Of a DNA stretch of 64,000 nt, positions 7,300 to 39,040 are shown in pieces. The notes below the pieces were generated by a model, which saw only the letters and a program-made list of their open reading frames with translations, had not been told where the DNA came from and ran no database searches. The first letter of the stretch is position 1. Every line of letters starts with the position of its first letter. The position numbers and the translations under genes are program-made. This stretch comes from an uncultured bacterium (GTDB lineage: Bacteria > Desulfobacterota_D > UBA1144 > Nemesobacterales > UBA2774), in NCBI GenBank assembly GCA_963705505.1, contig CAVPJU010000010.1, positions 28,488-92,487 of the forward strand, written 5' to 3'.

Positions 7300-7463
7300 C
7301 GATCTTCTCCTCAACGCTCACTGAGACTGATTAAGATGCATATACTCATTCATATATAAAATATACTTTCGTCATTCGGAAATAACTAATATGGTTATTC
7401 GTTCACACACGCCGAAGTAATATTGTCTCCGGCTTCATGGACGTTCCCGCGTTAAAAGTCGAG

Positions 7464-10007
7464 TCACCGCTGCCACAGGATGTGAGGGGCTTCCAGGGGA
7501 ACCACAACCCCGGGGTAGCTTGGTATCACTCGCGCCGTATAGTCAGTCGCCGGGCGTGTTGCAGGCACTCGTGCGCTATAGACGTAGACGCTAACTGCCC
7601 CCTCAGGTTGTCGGACCTGTGTCATTTCCTGCCGCACGGAACCGCCGCCGTTGAGTCCCCGGGCATAAAGCTCTACTCGTACCGCACTCGGGTCGAGGTC
7701 ATTAAGATAGACCTGAATTTCAAAGACATATTCTTCCCCATCGGTCTCAACCTTCTCGTCGCTTAAGCGCAGCGTATCCCAATTTTCTTTCAGAGCCTGT
7801 TGCCAATTGACTAGCTGCACACCCACTGCGCCTTTATCATATGCGCGTTTACGGCAGGCAGTTGCAGCCGGGAGGTAGTGATCCTCGGTATATTCGCGGA
7901 CTGTGCGGGCGGCGGAAAAACGCGGCGTCAATTGCGCCATGCTTTCCCGCATCCGCGCCACCCAAGCAGTGGGAATGCCCTTCGCGTCCCGGTTGTAGAA
8001 CTCGGGGATCACCTCGTGTTCGAGCAAGTCGTAGAGCGCTTCCGCTTCGGCAACGTCCCAGGCCGGATCGTTGCCATGTTCCCGGCCGTCACCCAACGCC
8101 CACCCCACTTCCGGAGTGTAGGCTTCCGCCCACCAGCCATCCAACTCCGAGAGGTTGATACCACCATTGACGAGCACCTTCATGCCGCTCGTTCCGCTGG
8201 CCTCCCATGGCCGTCGCGGCGTGTTGATCCAGACATCCACACCCTGTACCAGACGCTCAGCCAATGACATGTCGTAGTCACCGAGGAACATCACATGGTT
8301 GCGCGCCTTGGGCCTCAGGATGAATTGGATCCATTCACGGATCATGGCCTGGCCCGGATGGTCCGCCGGATGGCTCTTGCCGGCAATGATGAGTTGCGCG
8401 GGGCGCTGAGGGTTCGTTAACAGGCGAAGCAACCGGTCCGGGTCGTGCAGAAGGAGATTCGGTCTTTTATAGGTTGCGAAGCGGCGCGCAAAGCCCAACG
8501 TCAGTGTGTTGGGATTGAATAGGCGATTCACCCCCTTTGCCTTGGACGCCATTCCGGAGGCGGTCATTTGCTTTGTCAATCGTTCTCGAGCGTATTCAAT
8601 GAGAGACTTGCGGACAGTGGAGCGCAGTTGCCACAGCTTGGCGTCGGGGACGCGGCGTATGTCCTGGTCCAGGGTTTCCGTCGTTCTCCGCCAGGGGTGT
8701 TTCCCGCAAGCCTCGGTCCAAAGGCCGTCGGCGGCTGCCGAGTCCCAAGTTGTCATGTGGACTCCATTGGTCACGTGCCCGACCGGCACTTCATCCTCCG
8801 GCCAGCTAGGGAAAAGAGGTTGAAAAATGCGCCGGCTTACCTCCCCATGCAGGCGGCTCACCCCGTTTATCGCTCCACTTCCTCGAGCCGCAAGGTAAGC
8901 CATATTGAAAGGCTCTGACGAGTCGTTCGGGTTTTGCCGGCCAAGGGCCAGCAAATCGTAGAGTGCAATGCCGAGCTTATTTCGAGCGTAATCACCGAGG
9001 TACTGCTCGATGAGGTCAGGAGCGAAGCTGTCAAAACCGGCAGCCACCGGCGTGTGTGTGGTGAAGAGGTTACCAGCTCGTGTGACGGCAAGGGCGACCT
9101 CGAAAGATTGTCCTGTTTCCTCCATGAAACATCGTGCGCGTTCCAGCACCGCAAAAGCCGCATGCCCTTCATTCAGGTGGCAGACTTCCGGCTGGATGCC
9201 GAGCGAACGAAGTAGCCGCCAGCCGCCGATCCCTAGTACTAGTTCTTGCTTGAGGCGCAGCTCTGGCCCGCCCCCGTAAAGCTCGCTTGTAATTCCTCTA
9301 TGAGCCGGGAAGTTCACCGCGTCATTGCTGTCCAGCAGGTAAAGCTTCACTCTGCCAACCTGGACCTGCCATGCACGCAGCGAGACCGAGTAACCGGGTA
9401 ATTCGATCTCCACCCGCAACCACTCCCCGCTCGATTCCCGCAGGGGTAGGATCGGCAATTGACCGGCATCATTGAAGGGGAAGAGAGCCTGTTGCGCCCC
9501 GTCCTTGTCGATCACCTGGCGAAAATAGCCCTGCTGGTAGAGCAGCCCCACGGCGACCACCGGCACACCCAGGTCGCTGGCGGCTTTAAGCTGGTCGCCG
9601 GCCACATTGCCAAGCCCGCCTGAATAGATGGGGAGAGCTTCGCTCAACATGAATTCCATGCTGAAATAAGCGATATAGATCAGGGGTGCTTCTGGATGAT
9701 GTTGCTGAAACCATGCAGGCGTCCGGGCTGCCGACTGCCTATCCTGCAGCACGTCACTCAGCTGTTTGCGAAAGTCGGAATCGGATAAGACCCGCTCGAG
9801 CTGTTTCCTCGAGACAGTTTGCAGGACGACCCAGGGATTATGCGTACGTTCCCATAGCGCTGGATCAAGTTGCATCCAGATTCCATCGGCGGCATGATTC
9901 CACGCCGAGCGCATGTCCAGCGCCAACTCTGCGAGCGAATCGAATCCCTCCAGATCAGTGGGTAGAAAAGAGTAGATCGGGTTGTTAATGAGTGCTTGTT
10001 TGCTCAT
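7464..10007 (-). CDS. glgP: alpha-glucan (glycogen) phosphorylase, GT35 / GlgP family
   Basis: 847 aa with the DUF3417 N-terminal region and a GT35 phosphorylase core (..EASGTSGMK.. pyridoxal-phosphate lysine motif). A good RBS lies upstream. Confidence 0.88.
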   Translation of the reverse strand: MSKQALINNPIYSFLPTDLEGFDSLAELALDMRSAWNHAADGIWMQLDPALWERTHNPWVVLQTVSRKQLERVLSDSDFRKQLSDVLQDRQSAARTPAWFQQHHPEAPLIYIAYFSMEFMLSEALPIYSGGLGNVAGDQLKAASDLGVPVVAVGLLYQQGYFRQVIDKDGAQQALFPFNDAGQLPILPLRESSGEWLRVEIELPGYSVSLRAWQVQVGRVKLYLLDSNDAVNFPAHRGITSELYGGGPELRLKQELVLGIGGWRLLRSLGIQPEVCHLNEGHAAFAVLERARCFMEETGQSFEVALAVTRAGNLFTTHTPVAAGFDSFAPDLIEQYLGDYARNKLGIALYDLLALGRQNPNDSSEPFNMAYLAARGSGAINGVSRLHGEVSRRIFQPLFPSWPEDEVPVGHVTNGVHMTTWDSAAADGLWTEACGKHPWRRTTETLDQDIRRVPDAKLWQLRSTVRKSLIEYARERLTKQMTASGMASKAKGVNRLFNPNTLTLGFARRFATYKRPNLLLHDPDRLLRLLTNPQRPAQLIIAGKSHPADHPGQAMIREWIQFILRPKARNHVMFLGDYDMSLAERLVQGVDVWINTPRRPWEASGTSGMKVLVNGGINLSELDGWWAEAYTPEVGWALGDGREHGNDPAWDVAEAEALYDLLEHEVIPEFYNRDAKGIPTAWVARMRESMAQLTPRFSAARTVREYTEDHYLPAATACRKRAYDKGAVGVQLVNWQQALKENWDTLRLSDEKVETDGEEYVFEIQVYLNDLDPSAVRVELYARGLNGGGSVRQEMTQVRQPEGAVSVYVYSARVPATRPATDYTARVIPSYPGVVVPLEAPHILWQR

Positions 10008-10121: not shown

Positions 10122-11786
10122 TCATGTATCGTTGCTGCTCCTTGCCGCCTTCAAAGCGCAGTTGACGATTGCCTGTGCCTCTTCCTGGATGCGGCGCAAA
10201 TGATCCTTCCCACTAAAACTCTCCGCATAAATCTTGTAGATATCCTCCGTCCCGGAAGGACGAGCCGCGAACCATCCGGTCTCGGCAATAATCTTCAATC
10301 CCCCGATGGAACCGCCATTGCCCGGTGCTTGAGTGAGTATGGCTTGGATTTTTTCGCCCGCCAGATCTGTGGATCGAACCTGGTCGGGTGAGAGTCTTTC
10401 CAGCGCTTCCTTTTGCTCCTGGGTGGCTGGCGCCTCAATCCGTTCGTAAACGGGCTCACCTAACTCACGAGTAAGCTTCCGGTAGATCTCGCCAGGGTCG
10501 CAGCCCATACGTGCTGTGATCTCTGCCGAGAGCAGCGCTGGGATGATACCGTCTTTATCCGTGGTCCATACACTACCATCAAGGCGGAGAAAAGAAGCTC
10601 CCGCGCTTTCTTCACCGACGAAACCAAGCGAACCATCAAGGAGACCATCAACGAACCACTTAAAGCCAACCGGCACCTCATAGAGCTTCCTACCGAGCTT
10701 GGCGGTGACGCGATCTATCATCTGGCTACTTACAACTGTCTTACCTACCGCCGCTTCCTGCCGCCACTTAGGTCGGTATTGGAAAAGGTAGAAGATGGCG
10801 ACTGACAGATAGTCATTGGGCGGCAACAAACCCACACTCTTGGTAACAATGCCGTGTCGGTCATGATCTGTGTCGCAGGCGAATGCGATCTCGAAACGAT
10901 CCTTCAATTTGATTAATCGCTGCATCACATAGGGCGAGGAAGGATCCATGCGTACCTGGCCATCCCAATCAACGGTCATGAAACGAAAGGTCGGATCGAC
11001 CATCTCGTTTACGATCTTGAGGTTCAACCCGTAGCGATCAGCAATCGGACCCCAATAGTGGACCCCGGCTCCACCGAGTGGATCCACGCCCAGGCTGATC
11101 TTCGAACCGCGGATGGCGTCCATGTCAATTACACTGCCGAGGTCGTTCACATAAGCATCAAGGTAGTCGTACCGGTGCGTCGTGTCTGCGCGAAGAGCTT
11201 TTTCAAAGGAAATTCTTTTTACGCCTTGGAGGCGATTTTTGAGAAACTCATTTGCCTTCGCCTCGATCCAGCCGGTAATGTCAGGTCCCGCCGGCCCGCC
11301 GGTGGGGGGATTGTACTTTAAGCCACCATCATCCGGCGGGTTGTGCGAGGGCGTGATCACAATGCCATCGGCAACTCCTGTTGTGCGGTTGCGGTTGTAC
11401 ATTAGAATCGCGTGAGAAACGGCAGGAGTCGGCGTATATTCATCACGCTCAGCGATCATGACATCCAATCCGTTTGCCGCCAGCACTTCAAGCACACTGG
11501 CAAAAGCCGGCACGGAAAGTGCATGGGTGTCCATACCCAGGAACAGCGGGCCATCGATCTTCTGCTGCTGGCGGTACAGGCAAATGGCCTGACTGATTGA
11601 GAGAATATGCCATTCATTGAAAGTCTTCTCGAATGATGAACCACGATGCCCCGAGGTACCGAACACGACCCTTTCTTCAGTAACCGAATGATCAGGCATC
11701 TCACTATAATAAGCAGTGACTAGCTTGGGTATATTAACCAGCCTTGAAGGCTTGACAGGCTTTCCTGCAAAATGATTCAAATTCAT
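10122..11786 (-). CDS. pgm: phosphoglucomutase (alpha-D-glucose-phosphate specific)
   Basis: 554 aa with the active-site TPSHNP and GGPAG.. motifs of the PGM/PMM family. Confidence 0.9.
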   Translation of the reverse strand: MNLNHFAGKPVKPSRLVNIPKLVTAYYSEMPDHSVTEERVVFGTSGHRGSSFEKTFNEWHILSISQAICLYRQQQKIDGPLFLGMDTHALSVPAFASVLEVLAANGLDVMIAERDEYTPTPAVSHAILMYNRNRTTGVADGIVITPSHNPPDDGGLKYNPPTGGPAGPDITGWIEAKANEFLKNRLQGVKRISFEKALRADTTHRYDYLDAYVNDLGSVIDMDAIRGSKISLGVDPLGGAGVHYWGPIADRYGLNLKIVNEMVDPTFRFMTVDWDGQVRMDPSSPYVMQRLIKLKDRFEIAFACDTDHDRHGIVTKSVGLLPPNDYLSVAIFYLFQYRPKWRQEAAVGKTVVSSQMIDRVTAKLGRKLYEVPVGFKWFVDGLLDGSLGFVGEESAGASFLRLDGSVWTTDKDGIIPALLSAEITARMGCDPGEIYRKLTRELGEPVYERIEAPATQEQKEALERLSPDQVRSTDLAGEKIQAILTQAPGNGGSIGGLKIIAETGWFAARPSGTEDIYKIYAESFSGKDHLRRIQEEAQAIVNCALKAARSSNDT

Positions 11787-22709: not shown

Positions 22710-24773
22710 ATGTTAATTCTGGATAAGAGGAAATACGAGAGAATCGTATCGGATCTTATTGACGCAAAGGATATAAGGGAAATCGTCGATAAGTTCTCGA
22801 TAGACAGGATTTATTACTACCACGTACTTAAGGATATATCTTCGGGACAGCGCTCGCCTAATTTCAAACACCTTCAGAGTATAGCCCGGAAGAGGAAGCT
22901 CAGCGAAAATTTCATTATAGAGCAGTCAAAATCGGTCCTGAATTATTTCGTACCGTACTATCAGAGCTACCCGACCGACTCGCTCGACTACTACAAGATA
23001 CTGAATGTCCCCCGCAACGCCGCTGAGGAAGAGATAAGGCGGAGCTGGATAGAGCTCATGAAATCCCACCACCCGGACAAGGCGGGGGCAGATGGGCTGG
23101 ACGCCGCGAAAAAGATAAACGAAGCCTATGATGTCCTGGGCAACAGCACTAAAAGGGAGGCGTACGACAATAAGCACCTCCCCGCGATGCCCGTCATAAT
23201 CCCCGACAGCGGGCTCAGGAGATACTACTATGCAGTGCCGATCGCTCTCACCATATTCGTGGTGCTTATGTACGCCCTGGGCTCGGGACTCATATTCAAA
23301 TCTCAGGAAGAAAAAGAAAGGCTCGCAAGGGTGATAGAAGACCCGAGCATCCCCAATGCCGTCTATAAGGGCGATTTAATGAAAGACGAATCCGATGAAA
23401 AAGCTGCTTCCGAAATAAAACCCGTCGAGCCCGCCGGCGATACGAACAGGATGATAGCGGAGAGGGAGAAGGAATCAGTCGAAGCCGGAAATAATCAGGA
23501 ACAGAGAGGGGCCGAAATACCCGCTGAGGAGACTCTTGCCGAAAGTCGTAGTGCCGCGGAAATGAAGACGGAATCAGCGGCTGCGGAGTCGCCGGATAAA
23601 AAGGTTCCGGAAGAAACGGCGGAGAAGCCCGGGGCAATAGAAGTCGCCGATGCGGATAAAGGCGAGGTACCGCCTGTAGCGGCCGAGCCTGAAAAAAAGT
23701 TGGAGATAACCGAAATAATTCCCGATAAAGAGGAAAAGGCCGCTCCTGCCGAGGAAAAATCAGCCGGGGGTGAAAAGGTTCTGGCCGAAGCCGGCAGCGC
23801 TGAAATAAAAGAGAACCCAGAGGAAAATGAGAATACGGACAAGGCTGTTCCCGAGAAAAAGACGGAGGCTCAGCCGAAGGACGAGGAGCCCGTCAAGAAG
23901 GCGGTTATAGCCGAAAAGGCCCCGGAACCCGGTTCGGGGACGGAAGAGACGGCTAAAATTGCCGTACCCGAAAAAGAAGGAACATATACCGGCGGCACGT
24001 ATCATACCGTCAAGAAAGGCGAGTCGTTATGGACGATAGCCCGCAAGTTCGACACGACTACCGCCGAGCTTACCAGGCTCAATAACATTGGGAACAGCAA
24101 GATAAACATCGGCGATAGATTATTAATATCCGGCAACGGTGTCCCTCTCCGCGAGACCGATTCAGGGCCCGGCATTATGGCAAGAAAGGCGGAGGCTGCT
24201 GAACCCGCTCCCGTTACTGCGGCAAAGAAGCCGGAAATCCCCAAGACTATAATTACAAAAACGGAACTAAACGGAAAGTCCCCGGAAAAGTCGGATATCG
24301 CCGCTGATTTCAATCCCGAGCTCGCCACCTCGGCCGTGGCGATAAGGAATACCGAGGTCAGGGCTCCCGCGCCCGCTCCGCCTGTTTCCTCGCCGGACAC
24401 GAACTCGCTTTACTCTTTTGTTTCCAGTTACGTATCCGCTTACAAGAACAGGGACCTGGACCGTGTGAAGGCACTTTTTGCGCCTGATGCCGTCGAGAAC
24501 GGCGTCAGCATAGCGAGGGTGCTCAGCAGCTACAGCTCGAACTTCTCAAAGCTCGAGATAGTCAGCTACGACGTAAAGGTCAAAAGGGCAACCCTTCAGA
24601 ATTCCCTGGGGTACGTAAGAGGGGATTTTTTCATAACGTTCAAGGACCAGCGCACGGGCGTGCTCAAGAACTCGAGAGGGAATATCAACTGGAAACTTGC
24701 CTGGGCGGGAGGCGCGTGGAAGATCCAGGAGCTTACCTATAAAATCGAATCAACCGATTCTGTCGGCGGATAA
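22710..24773 (+). CDS. J-domain / LysM-domain membrane protein with C-terminal NTF2-like (SnoaL/DUF4440-like) domain
   Basis: 687 aa. J domain with HPD (DYYKILNV...HPDKAG), one TM helix, ~250 aa of E/A/K/P-rich low complexity, a LysM (TYHTVKKGESLWTIARKF...), and a C-terminal ~130-aa globular domain. Confidence 0.65.
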   Translation: MLILDKRKYERIVSDLIDAKDIREIVDKFSIDRIYYYHVLKDISSGQRSPNFKHLQSIARKRKLSENFIIEQSKSVLNYFVPYYQSYPTDSLDYYKILNVPRNAAEEEIRRSWIELMKSHHPDKAGADGLDAAKKINEAYDVLGNSTKREAYDNKHLPAMPVIIPDSGLRRYYYAVPIALTIFVVLMYALGSGLIFKSQEEKERLARVIEDPSIPNAVYKGDLMKDESDEKAASEIKPVEPAGDTNRMIAEREKESVEAGNNQEQRGAEIPAEETLAESRSAAEMKTESAAAESPDKKVPEETAEKPGAIEVADADKGEVPPVAAEPEKKLEITEIIPDKEEKAAPAEEKSAGGEKVLAEAGSAEIKENPEENENTDKAVPEKKTEAQPKDEEPVKKAVIAEKAPEPGSGTEETAKIAVPEKEGTYTGGTYHTVKKGESLWTIARKFDTTTAELTRLNNIGNSKINIGDRLLISGNGVPLRETDSGPGIMARKAEAAEPAPVTAAKKPEIPKTIITKTELNGKSPEKSDIAADFNPELATSAVAIRNTEVRAPAPAPPVSSPDTNSLYSFVSSYVSAYKNRDLDRVKALFAPDAVENGVSIARVLSSYSSNFSKLEIVSYDVKVKRATLQNSLGYVRGDFFITFKDQRTGVLKNSRGNINWKLAWAGGAWKIQELTYKIESTDSVGG

Positions 24774-25053
24774 TAAGATAAGCCGGCGGCGTACCCCGGA
24801 GAAAATTAAACCTTTATAACTTCACAGGATAGGGAGAACGCATCTAAACTTACCGAAGCGGCGGGGATAGGGAATTATTATCCGCGGAGGAGTTCATCAT
24901 ACGGCATACGAGCCGATATCGCGTGACGGCGCAAATATAACAAAAACTGTTCAAAAGGCGGTTAGTCGGGTAGTTTTTAGCTTCTTTAACAATTTAAATT
25001 GCCGTGCTGAAAGCCGTAATTGCGGTGAATTCTTGGCAAGCCAAAAAAGGGAG

Positions 25054-25341
25054 ATGGTATTCGAAATGGCTATATCAGGCAGAAGAAAAAAGAAAGACGC
25101 GAAGAAGAACATTTTAAAAAGGATATGGGACGGATGGAAGAAGATCGCGAGAAAAATAGGCGACTTCAATGCGAGGGTGATACTTACGATTTTTTATTTC
25201 GTGCTGCTTCTGCCCTTTGCTCTGGTGGTCAAATTTTTTACCGATCCCCTTGAGATAAAAAAGGGTGCCAAAAAAGGGTGGCAGGTAAAGGAGGAGAAGG
25301 CCGACATTCCTCCCATGGAAAGGGCGGCGAGGCAGTTTTAA
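25054..25341 (+). CDS. SxtJ-like small membrane protein (short form)
   Basis: C-terminal half matches the SxtJ consensus N.R(I/V)IL.(I/V)FY..L.P..LV......DPL (FNARVILTIFYFVLLLPFALVVKFFTDPL). ATG sits just after AAGGGAG; the ORF track starts it at an upstream TTG. Confidence 0.55.
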   Translation: MVFEMAISGRRKKKDAKKNILKRIWDGWKKIARKIGDFNARVILTIFYFVLLLPFALVVKFFTDPLEIKKGAKKGWQVKEEKADIPPMERAARQF

Positions 25342-25390
25342 ACGCATTTTATAGAGGAATTTGCCGGGGGTCAGCCCGCACGGAGACAAT

Positions 25391-27178
25391 ATGAATATTC
25401 TTGGAATTTCCTGTTACTTTCACGACGCGGCGGCCGCGCTCATCAAGGACGGAGTGCTTGTCGCGGCGGCCGAGGAAGAGAGGTTCAGCCGTATTAAACA
25501 TGATTACGAATTCCCTGAGAACGCGATAGAGTTCTGCCTCGAGATGGGCGGCATCGAAACCGGCGACCTGGACTATGTAATGTTTTTTGAAAAGCCCTTC
25601 ATCAAGTTCGAGAGGCTCCTTCTGTGCTCCATGCAGACCTACCCCCGCTCGATGAAGCTCTTCAGGGAAGCCATGGTCACATGGCTCGGCGACAAGCTCT
25701 GGGTGAAGCACCTGCTTCTTAAGAAGCTCGGAGTCCCCGCGTCCAAGGTCCTCTTCAGCGAACACCACCTCTCGCATGCCGCGAGCAGCTTCTACTGCTC
25801 CCCATTCGACGAGGCCGCGATACTGACGGTAGACGGTGTGGGTGAATGGACGACGGCTGCGCTCGGAGTGGGTAAAGGCACCGACATAAAGCTCCTTAAG
25901 GAAATAAGGTTCCCGCATTCACTGGGCCTGCTGTATAGCGCATTTACGGCTTTTCTCGGCTTCGAGGTAAACGAGGGGGAGTACAAAGTCATGGGAATGG
26001 CGCCATTCGGCCAGCCCAAATATGTAGATAAGGTCTACGAGCTTGTCCATGTGGACGACGACGGCGGGTTCGAGCTCGATATGGATTACTTCTGTTTCCA
26101 CTACTCGTCCGAAAAGACCTTCAACAAGAAGTTCGAAAAGCTGTTCGGAGACCCGAGGGACCAGAAGGCGCATTTCTTCACCCCCTCGACCGGATACCCT
26201 TCATATTTCGGAGACAGGCCCCCGAATTTCGACGAGCTTGGGAAACAGAACCAGTACTACGCCGACATAGCGGCGAGCATACAGGTGGTGACCGAGCAGA
26301 TAATGCTCAAAATGGCGCAGTACGCCTACAGGGAGACGGGCATCAACAAGCTCTGCATGGCAGGCGGTGTAGCGCTCAACAGTGTGGCGAACAGAAAAAT
26401 ACTGGCGGAGACGCCTTTTGACGATATATATATCCAGCCGGCTGCGGGCGATGGAGGCGGAGCCGTGGGCGCCGCGCTTTACGGTTATCATGCGCTTCTG
26501 GGCAAGCCCAGGAATTTCGTAATGGAGCACGCATACTGGGGCGAGGAGCACAGCGCCTCCGATACGGAGGAATTCCTCAAGGAAAACAACATACCTTACG
26601 AGAGGCTCGAAGACGACGAGAAGCTCATCGGGCGGGTGGTCGATAACCTCACTCGGGGGAAGGTCATCGGGTGGCATCAGGGGAGGTTCGAATGGGGGCC
26701 GCGCGCTCTCGGGAACAGGAGCATCCTGGCCGACCCGAGGAGGGCCGACATGAAAGATATAGTCAACGTAAAAATAAAGTTCAGGGAGCCTTTCCGTCCG
26801 TTCGCGCCTTCCGTGCTCGAGGAGAAGGCCGGGGATTATTTCGCGCTCGACGATCCGGCGAGGCATTACCCGGCGCGTTTCATGCTCTATGTGACGGACG
26901 TACACGAGGACAAGCGCGGCGTGCTGCCGGCTATAACGCACGTGGACGGGACCGGGAGGCTTCAGACCGTGAAGAGGGAGCTCAACCCCAAATACTACAG
27001 GCTCATCGAGACATTCGGCGATGCAACGGGCGTGCCGGTTGTGCTCAACACATCGTTCAACCTCAAGGGCGAGCCGATAGTGAACACGCCCGGAGAGGCG
27101 TTCAACTCATTCAGCAAGAGCGGGATGGACGTTCTCGTACTCGGAAATTATTTAATAGACAAGGAAAAACTTCCTTAA
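25391..27178 (+). CDS. O-carbamoyltransferase, NodU/CmcH/SxtI family
   Basis: ~595 aa: MNILGIS.YFHD(A/S)AAAL..., central ATP/carbamoyl-phosphate region, YrdC-like and Kae1/HypF-like C-terminal half. Confidence 0.88.
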   Translation: MNILGISCYFHDAAAALIKDGVLVAAAEEERFSRIKHDYEFPENAIEFCLEMGGIETGDLDYVMFFEKPFIKFERLLLCSMQTYPRSMKLFREAMVTWLGDKLWVKHLLLKKLGVPASKVLFSEHHLSHAASSFYCSPFDEAAILTVDGVGEWTTAALGVGKGTDIKLLKEIRFPHSLGLLYSAFTAFLGFEVNEGEYKVMGMAPFGQPKYVDKVYELVHVDDDGGFELDMDYFCFHYSSEKTFNKKFEKLFGDPRDQKAHFFTPSTGYPSYFGDRPPNFDELGKQNQYYADIAASIQVVTEQIMLKMAQYAYRETGINKLCMAGGVALNSVANRKILAETPFDDIYIQPAAGDGGGAVGAALYGYHALLGKPRNFVMEHAYWGEEHSASDTEEFLKENNIPYERLEDDEKLIGRVVDNLTRGKVIGWHQGRFEWGPRALGNRSILADPRRADMKDIVNVKIKFREPFRPFAPSVLEEKAGDYFALDDPARHYPARFMLYVTDVHEDKRGVLPAITHVDGTGRLQTVKRELNPKYYRLIETFGDATGVPVVLNTSFNLKGEPIVNTPGEAFNSFSKSGMDVLVLGNYLIDKEKLP

Positions 27179-27245
27179 CTGGCGCGAGGTTAACGAGTGC
27201 TGTAAAATTAGATATAATTTATTATCTCATCGGGGGGATATTCAT

Positions 27246-27425
27246 ATGTCGTTCCTAAAGGGCATAACTGACAGAATGGGCATAATCGGCGAGCTGCTCC
27301 AGTTCTTCATACAGAACAAGTGGTGGTGGATTACGCCGATGATTCTGATACTACTCATATTCGCATTATTGATTATATTTGCGCAGAGCTCCGCAGTGGC
27401 TCCCTTCATATACACGCTATTTTAA
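27246..27425 (+). CDS. DUF5989 (SxtK-like) small membrane protein
   Basis: 59 aa, so not in the ORF track: MSFLKGITDRMGIIGELLQFFIQNKWWWITPMILILLIFALLIIFAQSSAVAPFIYTLF. It carries the highly conserved KWW...P and SSA(I/V)APFIYTLF ends of DUF5989. Confidence 0.75.
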   Translation: MSFLKGITDRMGIIGELLQFFIQNKWWWITPMILILLIFALLIIFAQSSAVAPFIYTLF

Positions 27426-27437
27426 TAGCCGATTCAT

Positions 27438-27470
27438 GCCCGGCCGCGCGCACGGCCGGGCTTCTTCTGT
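27438..27470 (+). terminator. rho-independent terminator after the SxtJ-carbamoyltransferase-DUF5989 operon
   Basis: gcccggccg cgcgca cggccgggc (9-bp GC stem, 6-nt loop) followed by ttcttctgtaatttct. Confidence 0.6.
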
Positions 27471-27824
27471 AATTTCTCAATCGCTCAACTCCCTTACATT
27501 CCGTTTTCACCGGAGCATCCCGGACGTACTCTATACCGGGTTTAATCACACGTTGTACTTCTCCGGTCAGATCTTTTTTATCCGGCAACTTTGATATTTA
27601 CCCTCCGGCAAATAAGGGTATAGAATTAGGGAAAGGGGATGTTATCGGTTTCCATAATTCCGACGACATGTATGCGGTTGTTCAAGTGCTCGGGAGTTTA
27701 TCCGTCCTGCGAGCGGAGAGCTTGCTGAGTGATTATGCGCCGGACCGATCTTTATGCGGCGGGATATGAATCAGTCAGATGCTCGGAATTAAAAGTTGAT
27801 TAAACAACGCGAGAGTGCCACCGG

Positions 27825-28868
27825 ATGAAAAGAGCGGTCATCAGCGGTATTACAGGTCAGGACGGCTCGTACATGACGGAGTTTCTGCTGTCGGTCGGTT
27901 ACGAGGTGCACGGTATCATCAGCTGGTCTAATCCGTCTAAAGACGAATATATAGACCGTTCTTATCTCGATCACGGGGAGCAGGACCCGGGGCTCTACCA
28001 CCATTCCTGGGACACGTCCGATTCCGGGCAGCTCACTAAACTCATTTACGAGATTCATCCTGACGAGGTCTATCACTTCGGGGCCCAGGGCCGCACGAGT
28101 GTCAGGTACGATATGCACGAATTCAGCGGGGATATAACGGGGCTCAGCTCATCGACGATTTTAGAGGCGATAAGGCAGAGCGGCATTAAGTGCAGGTTCT
28201 GTCACGCTTCATCGAGCGAGATATTCGGCTCGACACCGGCTCCGCAGAGAGAGTCTTCCCCTTTCCGCCCGCACAGTCCCTATGCGTGCGCGAAGCTCAT
28301 GTCCCACCTGTCGGCGGTAAACTACAGGGAGGCGTACGGCATATTCGCAGCGAACGGGATACTTTTCAACCACGAGTCCCCGAGGAGGGGAGAGATATTC
28401 GTATCGAGGAAGATAACCAGCGCCGTAGCGCGGATCAAGGCGTGCGAGGAGAGATACCTCATTCTCGGAGACCTCAAGCCAGAAAGGGACTGGGGTTATG
28501 CGCCCGAGTACATAGAGATGATGTGGAAAATGCTCGATAACGATTCACCCTGCGACTACGTGATAGGCACGGGCGAGTCGCATCCGGTGGGGGAGTTCGT
28601 CGAGGAAGCGTTCGCATACGCAGGGCTTGACTGGAACGAGCATGTGAGGATAGACCCGAGGTATTTCCGTACCCCGGAGGCGCCGGTCTTGAAAGCCGAC
28701 CCCTCGAGGGCGAAAATGGAATTGGGATGGGAGCCGCATATCAGGTTCAGGGAGCTTGTAAGGGTCATGGTCGACGCCGATATGAGGGCGCTCGGTCTCG
28801 AGCCTCCGGGACAAGGGGACAGGCTGCTTGAAGAGACGTTCCCCGTGAGCTGGTGGAAGAAGGAATAA
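27825..28868 (+). CDS. gmd: GDP-mannose 4,6-dehydratase
   Basis: 347 aa: ITGITGQDGSY..EFLL..GYEVHGI, SPYA.AKL, NHESPRRGE.FV.RKIT. The usual QASTSE reads HASSSE here. Confidence 0.85.
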   Translation: MKRAVISGITGQDGSYMTEFLLSVGYEVHGIISWSNPSKDEYIDRSYLDHGEQDPGLYHHSWDTSDSGQLTKLIYEIHPDEVYHFGAQGRTSVRYDMHEFSGDITGLSSSTILEAIRQSGIKCRFCHASSSEIFGSTPAPQRESSPFRPHSPYACAKLMSHLSAVNYREAYGIFAANGILFNHESPRRGEIFVSRKITSAVARIKACEERYLILGDLKPERDWGYAPEYIEMMWKMLDNDSPCDYVIGTGESHPVGEFVEEAFAYAGLDWNEHVRIDPRYFRTPEAPVLKADPSRAKMELGWEPHIRFRELVRVMVDADMRALGLEPPGQGDRLLEETFPVSWWKKE

Positions 28869-29044
28869 CCGCCTCACACCGTGAAGCTGTACTCTCACGG
28901 ATACCGCTTTCCCGTCCGACGCTTCGGGGTGTATCGCGATCCGGCGGGAAATAAATTTTGACCTTTCCGTATTTTCCCTTAAACTCTTGTCCGAAAAAAC
29001 GATGATTAATTTATTCTTACCGGAAGGTAAAAGAGGAGGCTTTA

Positions 29045-29647
29045 ATGCAGAGATTTGTTATCCCTCACAATCACGAGATAACTAAAGAGGACAGACGCAA
29101 GCTAAGCGGCCACGGCTCGCTTATCCTTTGGTTCACGGGCCTTCCGTGCTCGGGTAAATCGACGCTCGCAAACGAGGTCGAAAAAAGGCTGATCTCCTCG
29201 GGGGTCAGGACTTTCATTCTCGACGGCGATAACGTCAGGATGGGGCTTTGCAAGGACCTCGGGTTCTCGGAGGCGGACAGGGCGGAGAATATAAGGCGCA
29301 TCGGAGAGGTGTCCAAGCTCTTCGTTCAGGCCGGATGCATAGTGCTTTCGGCATTCGTGAGCCCGTACAGGAGGGACAGGGACGCTGTCAGGGCGCTCGT
29401 CGATGAAGGCGAGTTCGTGGAGGTGTTCGTGAGCGCTCCCCTCGAGGTCTGCGAGCAGAGGGACGTAAAGGGTCTTTACAAGAAGGCGAGAGAGGGGGTT
29501 ATAAAAGGGTTTACAGGAATCGACGACCCCTACGAGGCGCCGCTGAAGCCGGAAATAGTCATAGAGACGGACAAGATGACGCTCGAGAAGGGAGCCGATT
29601 ACATAATCAGCTACCTCGCCGCGAAAAAGGTTTTGAATTCGAACTAA
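29045..29647 (+). CDS. cysC: adenylyl-sulfate (APS) kinase
   Basis: 200 aa: P-loop [17 protein letters not shown], typical CysC. Confidence 0.9.
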
Positions 29648-29678
29648 CCCGGCAATGGCCGTAGAGGAGATATATAGT

Positions 29679-30620
29679 ATGCGTAAAAGGGTCCTCGTAA
29701 CCGGAGGGGCGGGATTTATAGGGTCCCACCTCTGTGAAAGGCTCCTCGGAGAGGGGAACGAGGTCATTTGCGTGGATAACTTCTTCACGGGGTCGAGGGA
29801 AAATATCAAGCACCTACTTCCCGACCCCTATTTCGAGGTCGTCAGGCACGATATATGCTTCCCTCTTTACCTCGAGGTGGACGAGATATATAACCTCGCG
29901 TGTCCCGCATCCCCGATCCATTATCAGCTCGATCCTGTCCAGACGACCAAGGTCAACGTCTCGGGGTCGATAAACATGCTGGGGCTCGCAAAGAGGCTGA
30001 AGATAAAGATATTCCAGGCATCGACGAGCGAGGTCTACGGAGACCCCGCAGTTCACCCCCAGACCGAGGATTACTGGGGGAACGTAAACCCGATAGGGCT
30101 GCGTGCCTGCTACGACGAGGGGAAGAGGTGCGCGGAAACCCTCTTTTTCGATTACCACCGCCAGCACGGCATAGAAATCAAGGTGCTCAGGATATTCAAC
30201 ACGTACGGCCCGAGGATGCACCCAAACGACGGCAGGGTAGTGAGCAACTTCATCATCCAGGCGCTCAGGGGGGAGGACATTACCATTTACGGGAGTGGCT
30301 CGCAAACGAGGTCCTTCTGCTACGTGGACGATACCGTGGACGCCGTTATACGCATGATGAACTCTCCCCGCGGGTTTACGGGTCCCGTAAACGCCGGGAA
30401 CCCGGATGAAGTCACGATGCTCGACCTCGCAAAGAGGATTATAGACTTAACGGACTCTCCATCGAAGCTCGTATTCAGCGACCTGCCCGGGGATGACCCG
30501 CGGAGAAGGAAGCCCGACATATCGCTTGCGCAAAAGAACCTCGGGTGGAATCCGGAGATAGATCTCGGAACCGGGCTCTTAAGGACAATTGAGTATTTCA
30601 GGTCGCGCCTCGGTGAGTAG
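29679..30620 (+). CDS. UDP-glucuronate decarboxylase (UDP-xylose synthase) type NAD-dependent epimerase/dehydratase
   Basis: [25 protein letters not shown] and ...[19 protein letters not shown]..., all UXS-typical. ATG at 29679 is preceded by GAGGAG; the ORF track starts at an earlier ATG (29655). Confidence 0.82.
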
Positions 30621-30807
30621 CGGGTCGAGAAAGGCCTTTCTTATGCAATCGGTCTGGGCGCTGCTATGTCCCTGGGTCCGGCATAAACTGTGCCGCGTCC
30701 GGATTCCCGCGAATAATGCGTGACATATCTGATTATAGAATTATATAAACGATTGCGGTGCGCATGCCTCTTTTGACGGTTTTTCCCCGTAGCTGACAAA
30801 AATAGTC

Positions 30808-30834
30808 TTGACTTTTTGTAAGCAGTTGTATTAT
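30808..30834 (+). promoter_or_regulatory. candidate sigma70-like promoter for proA (TTGACT - 15 nt - TATTAT)
   Basis: ttgact ttttgtaagcagttg tattat lies ~40 nt upstream of the proA ATG. The 15-nt spacer is shorter than optimal. Confidence 0.3.
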
Positions 30835-30872
30835 CATTTAAATACCAGTTCTAGGACCGAAGAAATATCTAA

Positions 30873-32165
30873 ATGTCTGATATTAAAGCAAAAAATAAAC
30901 TTCAGCATACTCGATTATCCAAGCTCATGACTGAAATCGCCGAAAGGGCGAAGGGAGCTTCGCTTAAGCTCGCAAAATCCCCTTCCGGCCCCAAGAACGA
31001 CGCGCTTCTCAGGATGTCAAAAGGCATCATCGAAAGGGCGGGGCATATAATCGCTGAGAATAAGAAGGACGTGGACGAGGCCCTGTCGAAGGGGCTCTCC
31101 GGAGCCATGATAGACCGTCTCACGCTGACAGAGGAGCGTATCGCGAAGATTTCGGACGGACTCAGGGAAGTCTCGGCCCTCGATGACCCCGTCGGGGAGA
31201 TCGTCCGCATGTGGAAGCGTCCGAACGGGCTTCTCGTGGGGAAGATGAGGATACCGCTTGGCGTGATAGGGATAATTTACGAGTCGAGGCCCAACGTCAC
31301 GGCCGACGCCGCGGGCCTATGCATTAAGTCGGGCAACGCGGTTATACTCCGCGGCGGCTCTGAATCGATAAGGACTAACCTCGCGATAGGCGAGGTGCTG
31401 AGGGGCTCCCTGAAAGAGTCCGGTCTGCCCGAGGACGCGGTGCAGATCGTCCCGGTCGCAGAGAGGGAGGCGGTTCTCGAGATGCTCAAGCTCGAGGAGT
31501 ATATCGACCTCATAATACCGAGGGGAGGGGAGGGACTCATCAGGTTCGTGTCGGAGAACTCGAGAATACCCGTCCTCAAACATTATAAGGGTGTTTGCCA
31601 CATATTCGTCGACGAGAGCGCCGACCCTGAGATGGCCGAGAGGATTTGCGTTAACGCCAAGGTGGAGCGCCCGGGCGTATGCAACGCCATGGAGACGATG
31701 CTCGTCCATGAAAATATTGCGGGTAAATTCCTGCCGCGTATCGCGAAGAGGTTCGCCGAAGAGGGGGTTGAGCTCAGGGGCTGCGAGCGCACGAGGGAAA
31801 TAGTGCCCGGTATGAAGAAAGCCGAAGAGGCGGACTGGTACGAGGAATACCTCGACCTCATACTGAGCGTGAAGGTCGTAAAAGATATCGATGAAGCGAT
31901 AAACCATATAGAGAAATACGGCTCCATGCACACGGAGTCGATAATCACGGAGAACTACACAAATTCTCAAAAGTTCCTAAACGGAGTAAATTCGTCGACC
32001 GTCATGGTCAACGCGTCCACGCGGTTCAGTGACGGGTACGAGCTCGGACTCGGCGCCGAGATCGGAATAAGCACGTCCAAGCTGCACGCTTTCGGACCGA
32101 TGGGCGCACTCGAGCTTACGACGACGAAGTTCATCGTTTTCGGAGAAGGGCAGATTAGAAAGTAG
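30873..32165 (+). CDS. proA: gamma-glutamyl phosphate reductase
   Basis: 430 aa aldehyde dehydrogenase-fold ProA (..[24 protein letters not shown]..). Confidence 0.9.
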
Positions 32166-35250: not shown

Positions 35251-35811
35251 ATGCCTATAAGCGTTAAAGAGACGGAGCTTCCCGGAGTACTGGTGATAGA
35301 GTCCGAAATACACTCGGACGCCAGGGGTTTCTACAAAGACGTATACCACCTTGAAAAGTACAGCTCCTCCGGCCTCGGTATGACGTTCGTTCAGGACAAC
35401 CACTCACATTCGGTCAAGAATGTGCTCCGCGGAATTTATTACCAGATGACTAAGCCCCAGGGCAAACTCGTTATGGCAATAACCGGAGAGATTTTCGACG
35501 TGGCGGTGGATATAAGGGCAGGCTCGCCTAATTTCGGGAAGTGGACGGGTGTTTACCTCTCGCCTCTCAATAACCGTCAGCTATATATACCCGAGGGTTT
35601 CGCACACGGGTTCTGCGTCCTCAGCGATTCCGCGGACGTAATATATAAATGCACGCAGTTTTATGCCGTCGATGAGGACTACGGCATACTCTGGTCGGAC
35701 CCAACTCTCGATATAAATTGGCCTGTGAAAGAGCCGATTCTATCGGAGAAGGACAAAAACAACCCCCCTCTCCACGAAATACCGCTCACGCTTCTTCCTT
35801 CTTACAAATAG
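35251..35811 (+). CDS. rfbC: dTDP-4-dehydrorhamnose 3,5-epimerase
   Basis: 186 aa cupin: ..D.RGFF.......QDN.S.S...VLRG.H.Q......KLV....G.I.DVAVD.R..S. Confidence 0.88.
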   Translation: MPISVKETELPGVLVIESEIHSDARGFYKDVYHLEKYSSSGLGMTFVQDNHSHSVKNVLRGIYYQMTKPQGKLVMAITGEIFDVAVDIRAGSPNFGKWTGVYLSPLNNRQLYIPEGFAHGFCVLSDSADVIYKCTQFYAVDEDYGILWSDPTLDINWPVKEPILSEKDKNNPPLHEIPLTLLPSYK

Positions 35812-37186: not shown

Positions 37187-38218
37187 ATGAAGGCTGTCGT
37201 TACGGGCGGAACCGGGTTCATAGGCGGACGGCTCGTCGAAGAGCTCGTTGAAAAGGGATACAAAGTCAGATGTCTCGTCAGGGACACGAGCGACGTAAAG
37301 ATGCTTAAGGAGCTGGGCGCCGAGCTTTACCACGGCGACCTCGGCGATAGCCGAAGCCTCGAGAGACTGCCCGAGGGCGGCGACGTGGTATTCCACCTGG
37401 CTGCTCTGGTTTCCGACTGGGGGGAGAGGTCGGAGTTCCGGAGATTCAATGTAGATGCAACCAACACCCTTCTCGAAGCTTCGCTGAAGTCGGGCGTGAA
37501 GAGGTTCGTCCATATGAGCTCCTCCACGGTCGTCTGGAAGTCCGACTTCTGGAACGTCCACAACCTGATCGACATAGACGAGACTTTCCCGTACAGGGAC
37601 AGATACAACGATTATTACAACGAGTCGAAGGCGGATGCTGAAAGGCTCGTATTAAGATTTTACAGGGACCGTGGTCTCGGGACCGTGGTCATCAGGCCCT
37701 CAAACGTCTGGGGCGCCGGAGATACGGTGATTCTTCCGCGGGTGGCGATGGCAGCCCGGAAAGGAATTCTTTTCCCCATGGGCAGCGGCGTGAGGACCGT
37801 CACTCCCTGCCATGTCTCGAACCTCGCCAGGGCTCTCGTCCTCGCGGCGGAGAGCGGGAGAGCGCCGGGCAATATCTACTTCGTAAACGACGGGGTAAAA
37901 ATAAGCTACATGGAGTTTCTTAAGAAACAGTTAAAAGCGGCGGGGATCGACTGGACTCCGGGTTTCTCTATACCGTATAAATTCGCGTATGCTCTGGCGT
38001 CGATCATGGAGTCCGCATACCGCGCGAGGAAATCGAAGAAGCCCCCCGTGCTCACCAGGTTTGCCGTGGCTGCGCTCGCCGGCAGCAGGAGCTACTCCAT
38101 AGAAAAGGCGAGGCGGGACCTCGGTTACGAGCCTTCCGTCGATATGGACCTGGGGATGAGAGAGATGGAGAACTGGGTCAAGCTCCTGGGCGGAACCGAC
38201 GCGCTTTTGAAATCATGA
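37187..38218 (+). CDS. NAD(P)-dependent epimerase/dehydratase family protein (SDR fold)
   Basis: VVTGGTGFIGGRLVEEL, a Rossmann fold. 343 aa. Confidence 0.75.
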   Translation: MKAVVTGGTGFIGGRLVEELVEKGYKVRCLVRDTSDVKMLKELGAELYHGDLGDSRSLERLPEGGDVVFHLAALVSDWGERSEFRRFNVDATNTLLEASLKSGVKRFVHMSSSTVVWKSDFWNVHNLIDIDETFPYRDRYNDYYNESKADAERLVLRFYRDRGLGTVVIRPSNVWGAGDTVILPRVAMAARKGILFPMGSGVRTVTPCHVSNLARALVLAAESGRAPGNIYFVNDGVKISYMEFLKKQLKAAGIDWTPGFSIPYKFAYALASIMESAYRARKSKKPPVLTRFAVAALAGSRSYSIEKARRDLGYEPSVDMDLGMREMENWVKLLGGTDALLKS

Positions 38219-38308: not shown

Positions 38309-39040
38309 ATGCAGGACTCACACACGGATTCAGGATTCGATATCCAAGCCCAGGGACTGACGAAGTCGTTCGGTAATTTTGAAGCCCTCTGCGGGATAGA
38401 CCTCGATATCAGAAAGGGGGAGTTCTTCACCCTGTTCGGCCCGAACGGAGCGGGCAAGACCACTTTTATCCGGATACTCTCCACCCTTGCAAAACCCTCC
38501 TCGGGAAAGCTGACGATATCGGGGTTCGATGCGAGGAAGGAGCCCGACAAGGTGAGACGGGTTACCGGGGTGATATCGCACGACCCGTTTTTATACGAGA
38601 ACCTGAGCGCGTTCGAGAATATAAAATTCTTCGGGACCCTTTACGGGGTCGAGAACATAGATGACAGGGGCGAGGAAGTCATAAAACAGGTCGGACTCGG
38701 TCAGCGCATGCACGATCTCGTGAGGAATTTCAGCCGGGGCATGAAGCAGCGCCTGGCGGTAGCGCGGGCGATAGTACACGAGCCCGGGATACTCCTCCTG
38801 GATGAGCCTTATACGGGGCTCGACCAGCACGGGGCAAAAGTATTCGGGGAGATGCTCACACTCCTTAAATCCCGGAACCGGACGATACTAATGACAACTC
38901 ACAATATGGATGAAGGCCTTGACCGGAGCGACCGTATAGGCATTCTCGCCGGGGGGCGTATAGTCTATGAATGCGGAAGGGAAGGGGTGGATAAGGACAC
39001 CTTCAAGGAAATATACATTTCGAGTGTGGAAAATTCATAA
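38309..39040 (+). CDS. ccmA: ABC transporter ATP-binding protein, heme exporter CcmA-like
   Basis: Walker A GPNGAGKTT, signature FSRGMKQRL, Walker B LLLDEP. It is followed by ccmB and ccmC. Confidence 0.75.
   Translation: MQDSHTDSGFDIQAQGLTKSFGNFEALCGIDLDIRKGEFFTLFGPNGAGKTTFIRILSTLAKPSSGKLTISGFDARKEPDKVRRVTGVISHDPFLYENLSAFENIKFFGTLYGVENIDDRGEEVIKQVGLGQRMHDLVRNFSRGMKQRLAVARAIVHEPGILLLDEPYTGLDQHGAKVFGEMLTLLKSRNRTILMTTHNMDEGLDRSDRIGILAGGRIVYECGREGVDKDTFKEIYISSVENS

Follow-up and report, generated by a model that had tools for sequence, protein, structure and literature searches.

A 64-kb stretch of DNA from an uncultured dadabacterium (contig CAVPJU010000010.1; hereafter the window, to whose positions all coordinates refer unless a locus is named) carries a triad of genes encoding a short SxtJ-like protein (J), an O-carbamoyltransferase (CT, the product of gene I) and a DUF5989 peptide (K). 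They are followed by gmd, cysC and a UDP-glucuronate decarboxylase gene (UXS), and all six open reading frames (ORFs) are on the + strand, at 25.0 to 30.6 kb. Named homologs assign the organism to Candidatus Dadabacteria/Thermodesulfobacteriota. The triad is probably a membrane-tethered, ATP- and carbamoyl-phosphate-dependent module for glycan O-carbamoylation which forms its own transcription unit. Such a module would combine a soluble O-carbamoyltransferase with two small single-pass membrane proteins. The YrdC-like C-terminal domain of the CT would make carbamoyl-AMP and the Kae1-like N-terminal domain would move the carbamoyl group to a hydroxyl, a step predicted here from conserved motifs only. 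J and K would serve as obligate membrane subunits which hold or activate the CT at the cytoplasmic membrane, and the most likely acceptor would be a sugar within a surface polysaccharide that is membrane-associated, lipid-linked or still nascent. The neighbouring genes could supply UDP-xylose (UXS), a GDP-6-deoxyhexose (gmd) and 3'-phosphoadenosine 5'-phosphosulfate (PAPS; cysC). The same three families are known from saxitoxin biosynthesis, where SxtJ and SxtK have been partners of SxtI without an assigned function since 2008. The window is a further, short-J instance of this already annotated triad, whose function is unsolved, and the arrangement is common rather than rare; taken by itself, the window offers one ordinary, reduced instance of the module and a modest result.

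The strongest evidence for a joint function is comparative. A pattern scan for K across one genome per species, followed by a check of the listed matches for true relatives, placed DUF5989 in at least 527 species genomes. The carriers belong to Acidobacteriota, Chloroflexota, Planctomycetota, Omnitrophota, Bacteroidota, Alphaproteobacteria, Verrucomicrobiota, Acidimicrobiia, the candidate phyla radiation (CPR) and other groups. Neighbourhoods were compared in a sample of 80 loci, and linkage was assessed in the 54 loci whose sequence extends 3.5 kb or more to either side of K. A CT gene and a J gene lie within 3 kb of K on the same strand in 51 of these 54 and slightly further away in two, while neither was found in one CPR locus. 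The gene-neighbourhood statistics for DUF5989 and SxtJ homologs which an earlier note on this DNA, made from the sequence alone, had proposed as a check thus place a CT and a J-like gene beside K in 53 of 54 well-flanked loci. The order of the three genes varies across the 80 loci (JIK 16, IJK 16, KJI 15, JKI 12, IKJ 8). Since the three genes stay together although their order changes, the triad is strongly indicated to be a functional unit; near-obligate linkage with shuffled order is a classic multi-subunit signature, here of a widespread bacterial module which usually resides in surface-glycan clusters. Some loci contain two to six CT ORFs, which fits J and K as shared subunits.

One further triad is located on pSymB of the model rhizobium Sinorhizobium meliloti (CP090106.1, 2340451–2342908; positions 7376–9833 of locus L089), with a J of 143 amino acids (aa; hidden Markov model (HMM) E 1e-20), a K of 49 aa labelled “DUF5989 family protein” by PGAP, and a CT 47% identical to that of the window. 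Its neighbours encode an acyltransferase of 671 aa and a response regulator. A tblastn search of K against plasmids gave no match, which is a false negative since pSymB encodes K. Literature searches found nothing on the pSymB triad and, within the library of papers searched, no mention of DUF5989. As S. meliloti is genetically tractable, the role of J and K is directly testable there.

The glycan part of the proposal derives from the company that the triad keeps. Among 210 same-strand operon partners classified with Pfam, the top families are all surface-glycan families: Lipase_GDSL_2 and Glycos_transf_2 (16 members each), Glycos_transf_1 (10), Wzy_C (8), DegT and ALGX (6 each), PMT_2 (3), and Wzt_C, WecG, GT9 and Sulfotransfer_3 (2 each); Wzz is a frequent partner as well. 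Of the 46 loci that span 15 kb or more, 25 contain at least two glycan-type genes, a raw count from seed-limited detection without background control. This context suggests that the usual acceptor is a lipid-linked or nascent polysaccharide. Because J and K are kept in glycan clusters as well as in the saxitoxin and suomilide clusters (PMC2679770; PMC10157211), whose acceptors are small molecules of alkaloid or peptide type, they most plausibly serve the enzyme, by membrane tethering, activation or assembly, and not the recognition of the acceptor.

The CT gene (25391..27178, +) encodes a protein of 595 aa. The called start lies at 25361 (605 aa), and ATG 25391 is the probable start because protein P0001 is 100% identical over 595 aa. 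Both of its domains are covered nearly end to end by Pfam, with Carbam_trans_N (PF02543) scoring 291.5 bits against a cut-off of 24 (profile positions 2–346 of 346) and Carbam_trans_C (PF16861) scoring 234.8 bits against a cut-off of 27 (2–170 of 170), which corresponds to a Kae1-like N domain followed by a YrdC-like C domain. The motifs HH.SHAAS, DGVGEW, GGV..N, QPA.GD.G and GPRALG.RS occupy alignment columns whose conservation is 95% or more across 70 triad-linked CTs, and the full motif set, including HxxxH, FRPFAP and NTSFN, falls in columns at least 80–95% conserved. In enzymes of the TobZ family, the YrdC-like domain forms carbamoyl-AMP and the Kae1-like domain then transfers the carbamoyl group. 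The full-length relatives in the PDB are NovN (9s2t, E 1e-98), followed by GdmN (7vzu) and TobZ (3ven), over an E-value range of 1e-98 to 4e-79. These share the two-domain architecture and motifs of the window CT; however, they modify soluble antibiotic acceptors and are described without membrane partners, whereas gene linkage firmly ties the window CT to two membrane proteins. The CT itself has no transmembrane (TM) segment. J and K each contain a single one, with amphipathic helices in front of it. The NodU equivalog profile (NF041651) is matched only in part, with 143 bits against a cut-off of 1000, so the CT is not a NodU equivalog. NodU and NolO (Nod factor) and WapO/PA5005 (7-O-carbamoylation of lipopolysaccharide-core heptose) nevertheless belong to the same enzyme family and carbamoylate sugars of envelope or secreted glycoconjugates. 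An insertion of 24 residues, FFTPSTGYPSYFGDRPPNFDELGK, at CT residues 261–284 (26171–26242) is missing in most of 69 CTs from other phyla; as it is confined to Dadabacteria, it was rejected as a family-wide docking element.

K (27246..27425, +) is the 59-aa ORF which the earlier note had assigned to DUF5989, and the assignment holds: PF19451 is matched with 69.1 bits (E 3.4e-19) against a gathering cut-off of 27. The WWW[LI]TPM motif does not vary across phyla, and neither does the C-terminal APFIYTLF (alignment A1). A single TM segment is predicted at residues 28–46, and AlphaFold2 (AF2) models helices at residues 2–11, 13–24, 29–47 and 51–58. By the positive-inside rule, the C-terminal tail probably faces outward. 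Matches of K to 5-HT2A (E ~0.1) were rejected as chance, and an apparent 650-aa K fusion in locus L001 was rejected as an over-extended ORF. Neither K nor J has relatives in the PDB.

J has three alternative starts (TTG 25033, ATG 25054 and ATG 25066) and a common end at 25341, of which ATG 25066 is the likeliest because close homologs measure 91–94 aa; the resulting protein has 91 aa (25066..25341, +). The earlier note had called a 96-aa ORF SxtJ-like, and this is confirmed for part of the family's length. The Pfam SxtJ profile (PF19588) stays below its cut-off of 24.4 with about 20.4–20.5 bits (E 8.8e-4), its match spans profile positions 50–93 of 99 only, and a precomputed SxtJ domain is present in just 1 of 101 close J homologs. 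A comparison with hhalign of the alignment of Dadabacteria J homologs (A2) and that of long-form SxtJ proteins of 120–145 aa (A6) nonetheless gives a probability of 98.6% (E 7.6e-16, 67 columns). The Dadabacteria-derived HMM picks up 74 J-like ORFs, of which 48 are also matched by PF19588 (best E 1.4e-19). The A2 HMM finds a same-strand ORF beside DUF5989 in most unrelated genomes, and an exhaustive J profile search returned 1830 cluster representatives, with short forms making up most of the 150 best-scoring. Judged from these profile comparisons, J is a short SxtJ form whose homology to long SxtJ is confined to the C-terminal half. The pair of N-terminal TM segments that form a hairpin in the 134-aa SxtJ is missing, and so is the full-length SxtJ architecture of about 130 aa. 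Its remaining features are an N-terminal helix that is basic and amphipathic (W.GWKKIARKIGDFNAR), a single TM segment predicted at residues 31–49 and a DPLEIK...RQF tail, with AF2 helices at residues 4–32, 36–58 and 83–90.

Apparent J fusions in loci L035, L050 and L075 were rejected as over-extended ORFs. J proteins of ~172 aa were likewise rejected as J–K fusions; they carry extra TM helices and no fused K. In a single instance (P0404, 266 aa), the SxtJ core is fused to a HAD-superfamily phosphatase domain, and by reading of the sequence its N-terminus resembles the heptose-bisphosphate phosphatase GmhB.

Several points weigh against a tethered glycan carbamoyltransferase. The membrane topology of J is ambiguous, and a simple anchoring role on the cytoplasmic side leaves the invariant, probably extracytoplasmic tail of K unaccounted for. 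The carbamoyltransferases NodU and WapO/PA5005, which act on glycans or glycolipids, are reported without J/K partners, and descriptions of the WapO cluster contain no J/K-type genes (PMC8005017). Recent literature lists J and K as hypothetical co-factors or “regulatory” genes (PMC12300590; PMC7073992; bioRxiv 10.64898/2026.06.11.731795), and they are still hypothetical partners in reviews up to 2025–26 (PMC12300590; bioRxiv 10.64898/2026.06.11.731795). Finally, about half of the sampled loci, the window included, have no glycan genes nearby by seed-limited detection.

The commonest additional, fourth gene of the triad loci encodes an SGNH/GDSL protein of ~390 aa with an AlgX-like domain (21 loci by clustering, 33 of 80 by HMM), nearly all copies of which have one N-terminal TM anchor. 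It matches sxtL in position and family, and the window has no SxtL. The invariant tail and the anchored SGNH partner together keep a trans-envelope role of the triad open. In one version, which is quite unlikely, J and K would, together with this partner, couple the CT to modification or editing of polysaccharides outside the membrane, as a trans-membrane relay or a write/erase pair by analogy with O-acetylation through AlgI/AlgJ/AlgF/AlgX. The frequency and anchoring of the SGNH protein, its SxtL type and position beside sxtIJK, and the conserved tails of K and J, which may face outward, would all fit this version. The resemblance to such O-acylation systems for polysaccharides is an analogy only: other triad loci often place the anchored SGNH/AlgX-like protein in polysaccharide clusters, but the triad has no polytopic MBOAT or AT3-type membrane enzyme that could act as a conduit, its donor would be carbamoyl-AMP, and the SGNH partner occurs neither in the window nor in any of the eight Dadabacteria loci. 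In addition, carbamoyl-serine would presumably be a poor transfer intermediate, and SxtL is a proposed decarbamoylase and not a transferase. Somewhat less doubtful, yet still unlikely, is the broader proposal that SxtJ-type proteins and DUF5989 are the membrane-bound centre of a phylum-spanning machine not yet recognised, which couples the cytoplasmic CT to surface polysaccharides at or across the membrane, in many species with the SGNH/AlgX-like enzyme, and which in some lineages perhaps makes N-sulfocarbamoyl glycans. If this were true, the invariant K tail would be a functional site outside the membrane and not an anchor.

For the tethered carbamoylation module, the arrangement of J, I and K fits a single transcription unit. 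The intergenic gaps measure 49 nucleotides (nt) between J and I and 67 nt between I and K, and neither contains a terminator-like site, from which co-transcription is inferred. The unit would be closed by a hairpin resembling an intrinsic terminator (27438..27470, +), which starts 13 nt past the stop codon of K; its stem (27438–27461) comprises 9 bp, all GC, and is followed by a T-rich tail. With a fold energy of −26.5 kcal/mol, it bears out the terminator that the earlier note had placed at the end of the triad. Hairpins of different sequence occupy the equivalent position in the Dadabacteria loci L083 and L084. In the I–K gap, a promoter-like pattern (TTAACG-17-TATAAT, 27190..27218, +) includes a -10-like element, GATATAAT, ~28 nt upstream of the K start, and this element is kept together with a GGAGG Shine-Dalgarno sequence in L082–L085 and L088. 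K is set apart from the CT by 0.5–0.9 kb in L085 and L087, where the insert consists of ~0.9 kb of uncalled DNA (L085, 11803–12711) or contains a 23S_rRNA_IVP-family gene (L087, 11849–12199), which indicates that the I–K junction tolerates insertions. Given the conserved GATATAAT and the distance of K from the CT in these two loci, K may also be under its own, putative promoter.

Between K and gmd lies a non-coding gap of 399 nt (27426–27824). Rfam gave no match in 24500–31000, this gap included; in L083, a called 61-aa ORF lies in the K–gmd gap and overlaps the gmd start. Because the terminator and the gap intervene, gmd, cysC and UXS are outside the J-I-K operon, and the six genes are not one operon. 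The identities which the earlier note had given to the downstream genes, rfbC included, are confirmed by family scores, though less clearly for gmd. The gmd product (27825..28868, +; a probable GDP-mannose 4,6-dehydratase) scores 346.6 bits in Pfam, 341 bits with PDB 1n7g and 262–341 bits across PDB GMD entries, but its 364.5 bits with TIGR01472 stay below the equivalog cut-off of 415. The cysC product (29045..29647, +; adenylyl-sulfate (APS) kinase, PF01583 family) exceeds the cut-offs of both TIGR00455 (274.9 bits vs 138.7) and NF003013 (285 bits vs 163). UXS (29655..30620, +; start 29679 in gene callers) scores 412 bits with human UXS1 (2b69/4gll) and 139 bits with the next class of short-chain dehydrogenases/reductases (SDRs), which marks it as a true UDP-glucuronate decarboxylase. 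rfbC lies further downstream (35251–35811, 218 bits).

The ties of these genes to the triad differ. Among the downstream genes, a functional tie to the CT has independent evidence for UXS alone: in an Omnitrophota locus (L025) it belongs to the operon of the triad, while elsewhere it stands beside K in a CPR locus (L032), and is fused to the CT in a single 922-aa ORF of a Planctomycetales metagenome-assembled genome (MAG; L062, 2248–5016). The UXS part of this fusion is 50% identical to the window UXS (315 bits) and the junction reads ...ISILR-MSQETPSYSFGISAFYHD, although an assembly error is possible. The gmd gene, by comparison, is a neighbour not conserved with the triad, with true orthologs in none of the 80 loci. 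The link of cysC, and of sulfation in general, to the triad is weak. Only 1 of the 80 loci carries cysC, ~9 kb away and on the opposite strand, and the gene is near the triad only in Dadabacteria, where it is tightly paired with UXS in every locus that carries it. Sulfotransferases accompany the triad in 5 of the 80 loci, interleaved with CT paralogs and all in one acidobacterial lineage.

These five loci (L002, L005, L008, L010 and L011, from Acidobacteriaceae/Terriglobales MAGs) are large clusters of Wzz, Bac_transf, SGNH, K, J and 2–6 CT ORFs with interleaved Sulfotransfer_3 genes; in L002, for example, a Sulfotransfer_3 gene (10411–11496) stands between J and a CT gene. They may make an exopolysaccharide that is multiply carbamoylated and sulfated, or N-sulfocarbamoylated. 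In the saxitoxin pathway, sulfotransferases act on the carbamoyl group of the toxin.

An alternative that is less probable, though to be taken seriously, holds that the triad and gmd, cysC and UXS are adjacent by lineage synteny only, that the module acts on something else and that there is no pathway to a carbamoylated and sulfated glycan. The terminator after K and the ensuing gap agree with this, as do the housekeeping flanks (ndk, proA, rpoD, recN), the absence of gmd from L084 and L085, and the 80 distant loci with no true gmd and one distant cysC. The earlier note had found no glycosyltransferase (GT) or sulfotransferase in the window, and none was found here with the HMMs and queries built for this analysis, which cover GT1, GT2, GT4, Bac_transf, Sulfotransfer_3, Wzz, Wza, Wzc and Wzm across all 64 kb. 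The UXS–CT fusion and the presence of UXS in triad operons of distant phyla argue against mere synteny, as do the position of cysC-UXS between J-I-K and GT genes in L086 and the sxtO-like APS kinase that accompanies sxtJ/K/L-like genes in both the saxitoxin and the suomilide cluster (PMC10157211). The carbamoylated and possibly sulfated glycan envisaged in the earlier note is retained for its glycan part, which the neighbourhoods across phyla and within Dadabacteria support in general, and has only a weak case for sulfation; its view of the six genes as one pathway gives way to the terminator, the gap and the non-conserved gmd, with UXS excepted.

The UXS–CT fusion also suggests channelling, and NDP-sugar SDRs and DegT are frequent partners of the triad. 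Both fit a rather unlikely scheme in which the substrate of the CT would be a nucleotide sugar in solution, such as UDP-xylose or the corresponding 4-keto intermediate, modified ahead of glycosyl transfer, with J and K regulating or scaffolding the enzyme instead of presenting a lipid-linked acceptor. This would leave two obligate membrane partners unexplained, the one fusion seen could be an assembly artefact, and the characterised relatives TobZ, NovN and GdmN act on finished scaffolds.

Within Dadabacteria, the surroundings of the triad connect the window to polysaccharide clusters. In L082 and L088 (CT identity 81–82%), the order is Wzy (− strand), Wza, Wzc, DnaJ(-LysM), a NusG paralog, J-I-K, GT4, Wzm, Wzt(+Wzt_C), GT2, an RmlD-like gene and more GT genes. 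L086 (80%) reads DnaJ-NusG-J-I-K-SDR-cysC-UXS, followed by PIG-L/GT2, a methyltransferase, GT1, a 2OG oxygenase and a radical-SAM protein, a layout which bridges the polysaccharide-cluster loci and the window. L083 (91%) is laid out like the window, gmd included, while L084 (87%) carries ndk, DnaJ-LysM, J-I-K, cysC-UXS, proA, rpoD and recN without gmd, and L085 (85%) follows L084, again without gmd. Since J-I-K stands at the head of a polysaccharide cluster in L082 and L088 and no GT, Wza, Wzc or Wzm homolog was found in its 64 kb, the window looks like a reduced remnant of an ancestral polysaccharide-cluster head. A 329-aa protein after UXS in L086, without a Pfam match, is not recognisable as a sulfotransferase and gave a weak GNAT match only.

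The comparison with saxitoxin clusters separates a shared gene set from a shared pathway. HMM and profile searches agree with the earlier note that the window holds the families of sxtI/J/K, namely a CT with GPRALG.RS, an SxtJ-type membrane protein and a DUF5989 peptide of ~54–59 aa. They differ from it in order: the sxt genes run sxtI-sxtJ-sxtK(-sxtL) (PMC2679770) and not sxtJ-sxtI-sxtK, whereas the window reads J-I-K. The contexts are a toxin cluster in cyanobacteria on the one hand and a glycan/housekeeping setting in a dadabacterium on the other. By Pfam, none of the core sxt genes (sxtA, sxtG, sxtB, sxtD, sxtS, sxtU, sxtH/T) occurs in the screened part of the window, 10 kb upstream and ~6 kb downstream, which contains housekeeping and NDP-sugar genes only. 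A role of the triad in tailoring a secondary metabolite, saxitoxin-like or other, is highly improbable, even though the gene set is that of sxtI/J/K and the suomilide cluster has sxtJ/K/L/O-like genes (PMC10157211). The flanks contain no polyketide synthase or nonribosomal peptide synthetase, amidinotransferase, dioxygenase or MATE genes, the CT is 78–92% identical across many Dadabacteria and therefore looks like a core gene, and the wider context of the triad is glycan-related. The results further suggest a glycan-modification module as the source from which saxitoxin clusters recruited their I-J-K-L tailoring block.

By Pfam, the triad and its downstream genes are flanked by ndk and a DnaJ-LysM protein upstream and by rfbC, proA, an rpoD-like sigma factor and recN downstream. 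The DnaJ-LysM protein (687 aa, 22710..24773, +) has a TM segment at residues 178–196, a long E/K/A/P-rich linker, LysM and a DUF4440-like C-terminus. Of eight Dadabacteria loci, seven have an ortholog ahead of J-I-K, polysaccharide clusters included, and in L082 and L088 it follows Wzc; the window copy scores 329 bits with the L082 ortholog. The protein may be part of the polysaccharide system. In three Dadabacteria loci, a NusG paralog lies between the DnaJ-LysM ortholog and J, and the 64-kb window contains neither a NusG paralog nor the SGNH partner. The NusG-paralog loci share a leader motif before J, AATCGCTTAATGTAAGTGAGGT(N)GCGGAGCTTTAA (L082, 9517–9680; L086, 9466–9655; L088, 9474–9658), which could be an ops-like recruitment site. 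The 292-nt leader of the window carries GGCGGTTAGTCGGGTAG at 24957–24973 despite having no NusG paralog; this presumably resembles the ops core GGCGGTAG, possibly by chance. Downstream of rfbC, the window encodes a 3-beta-HSD/NmrA-type NAD-dependent epimerase/dehydratase (37187–38218, +) and an ABC ATPase (38309–39040, +), and L084 carries the same pair.

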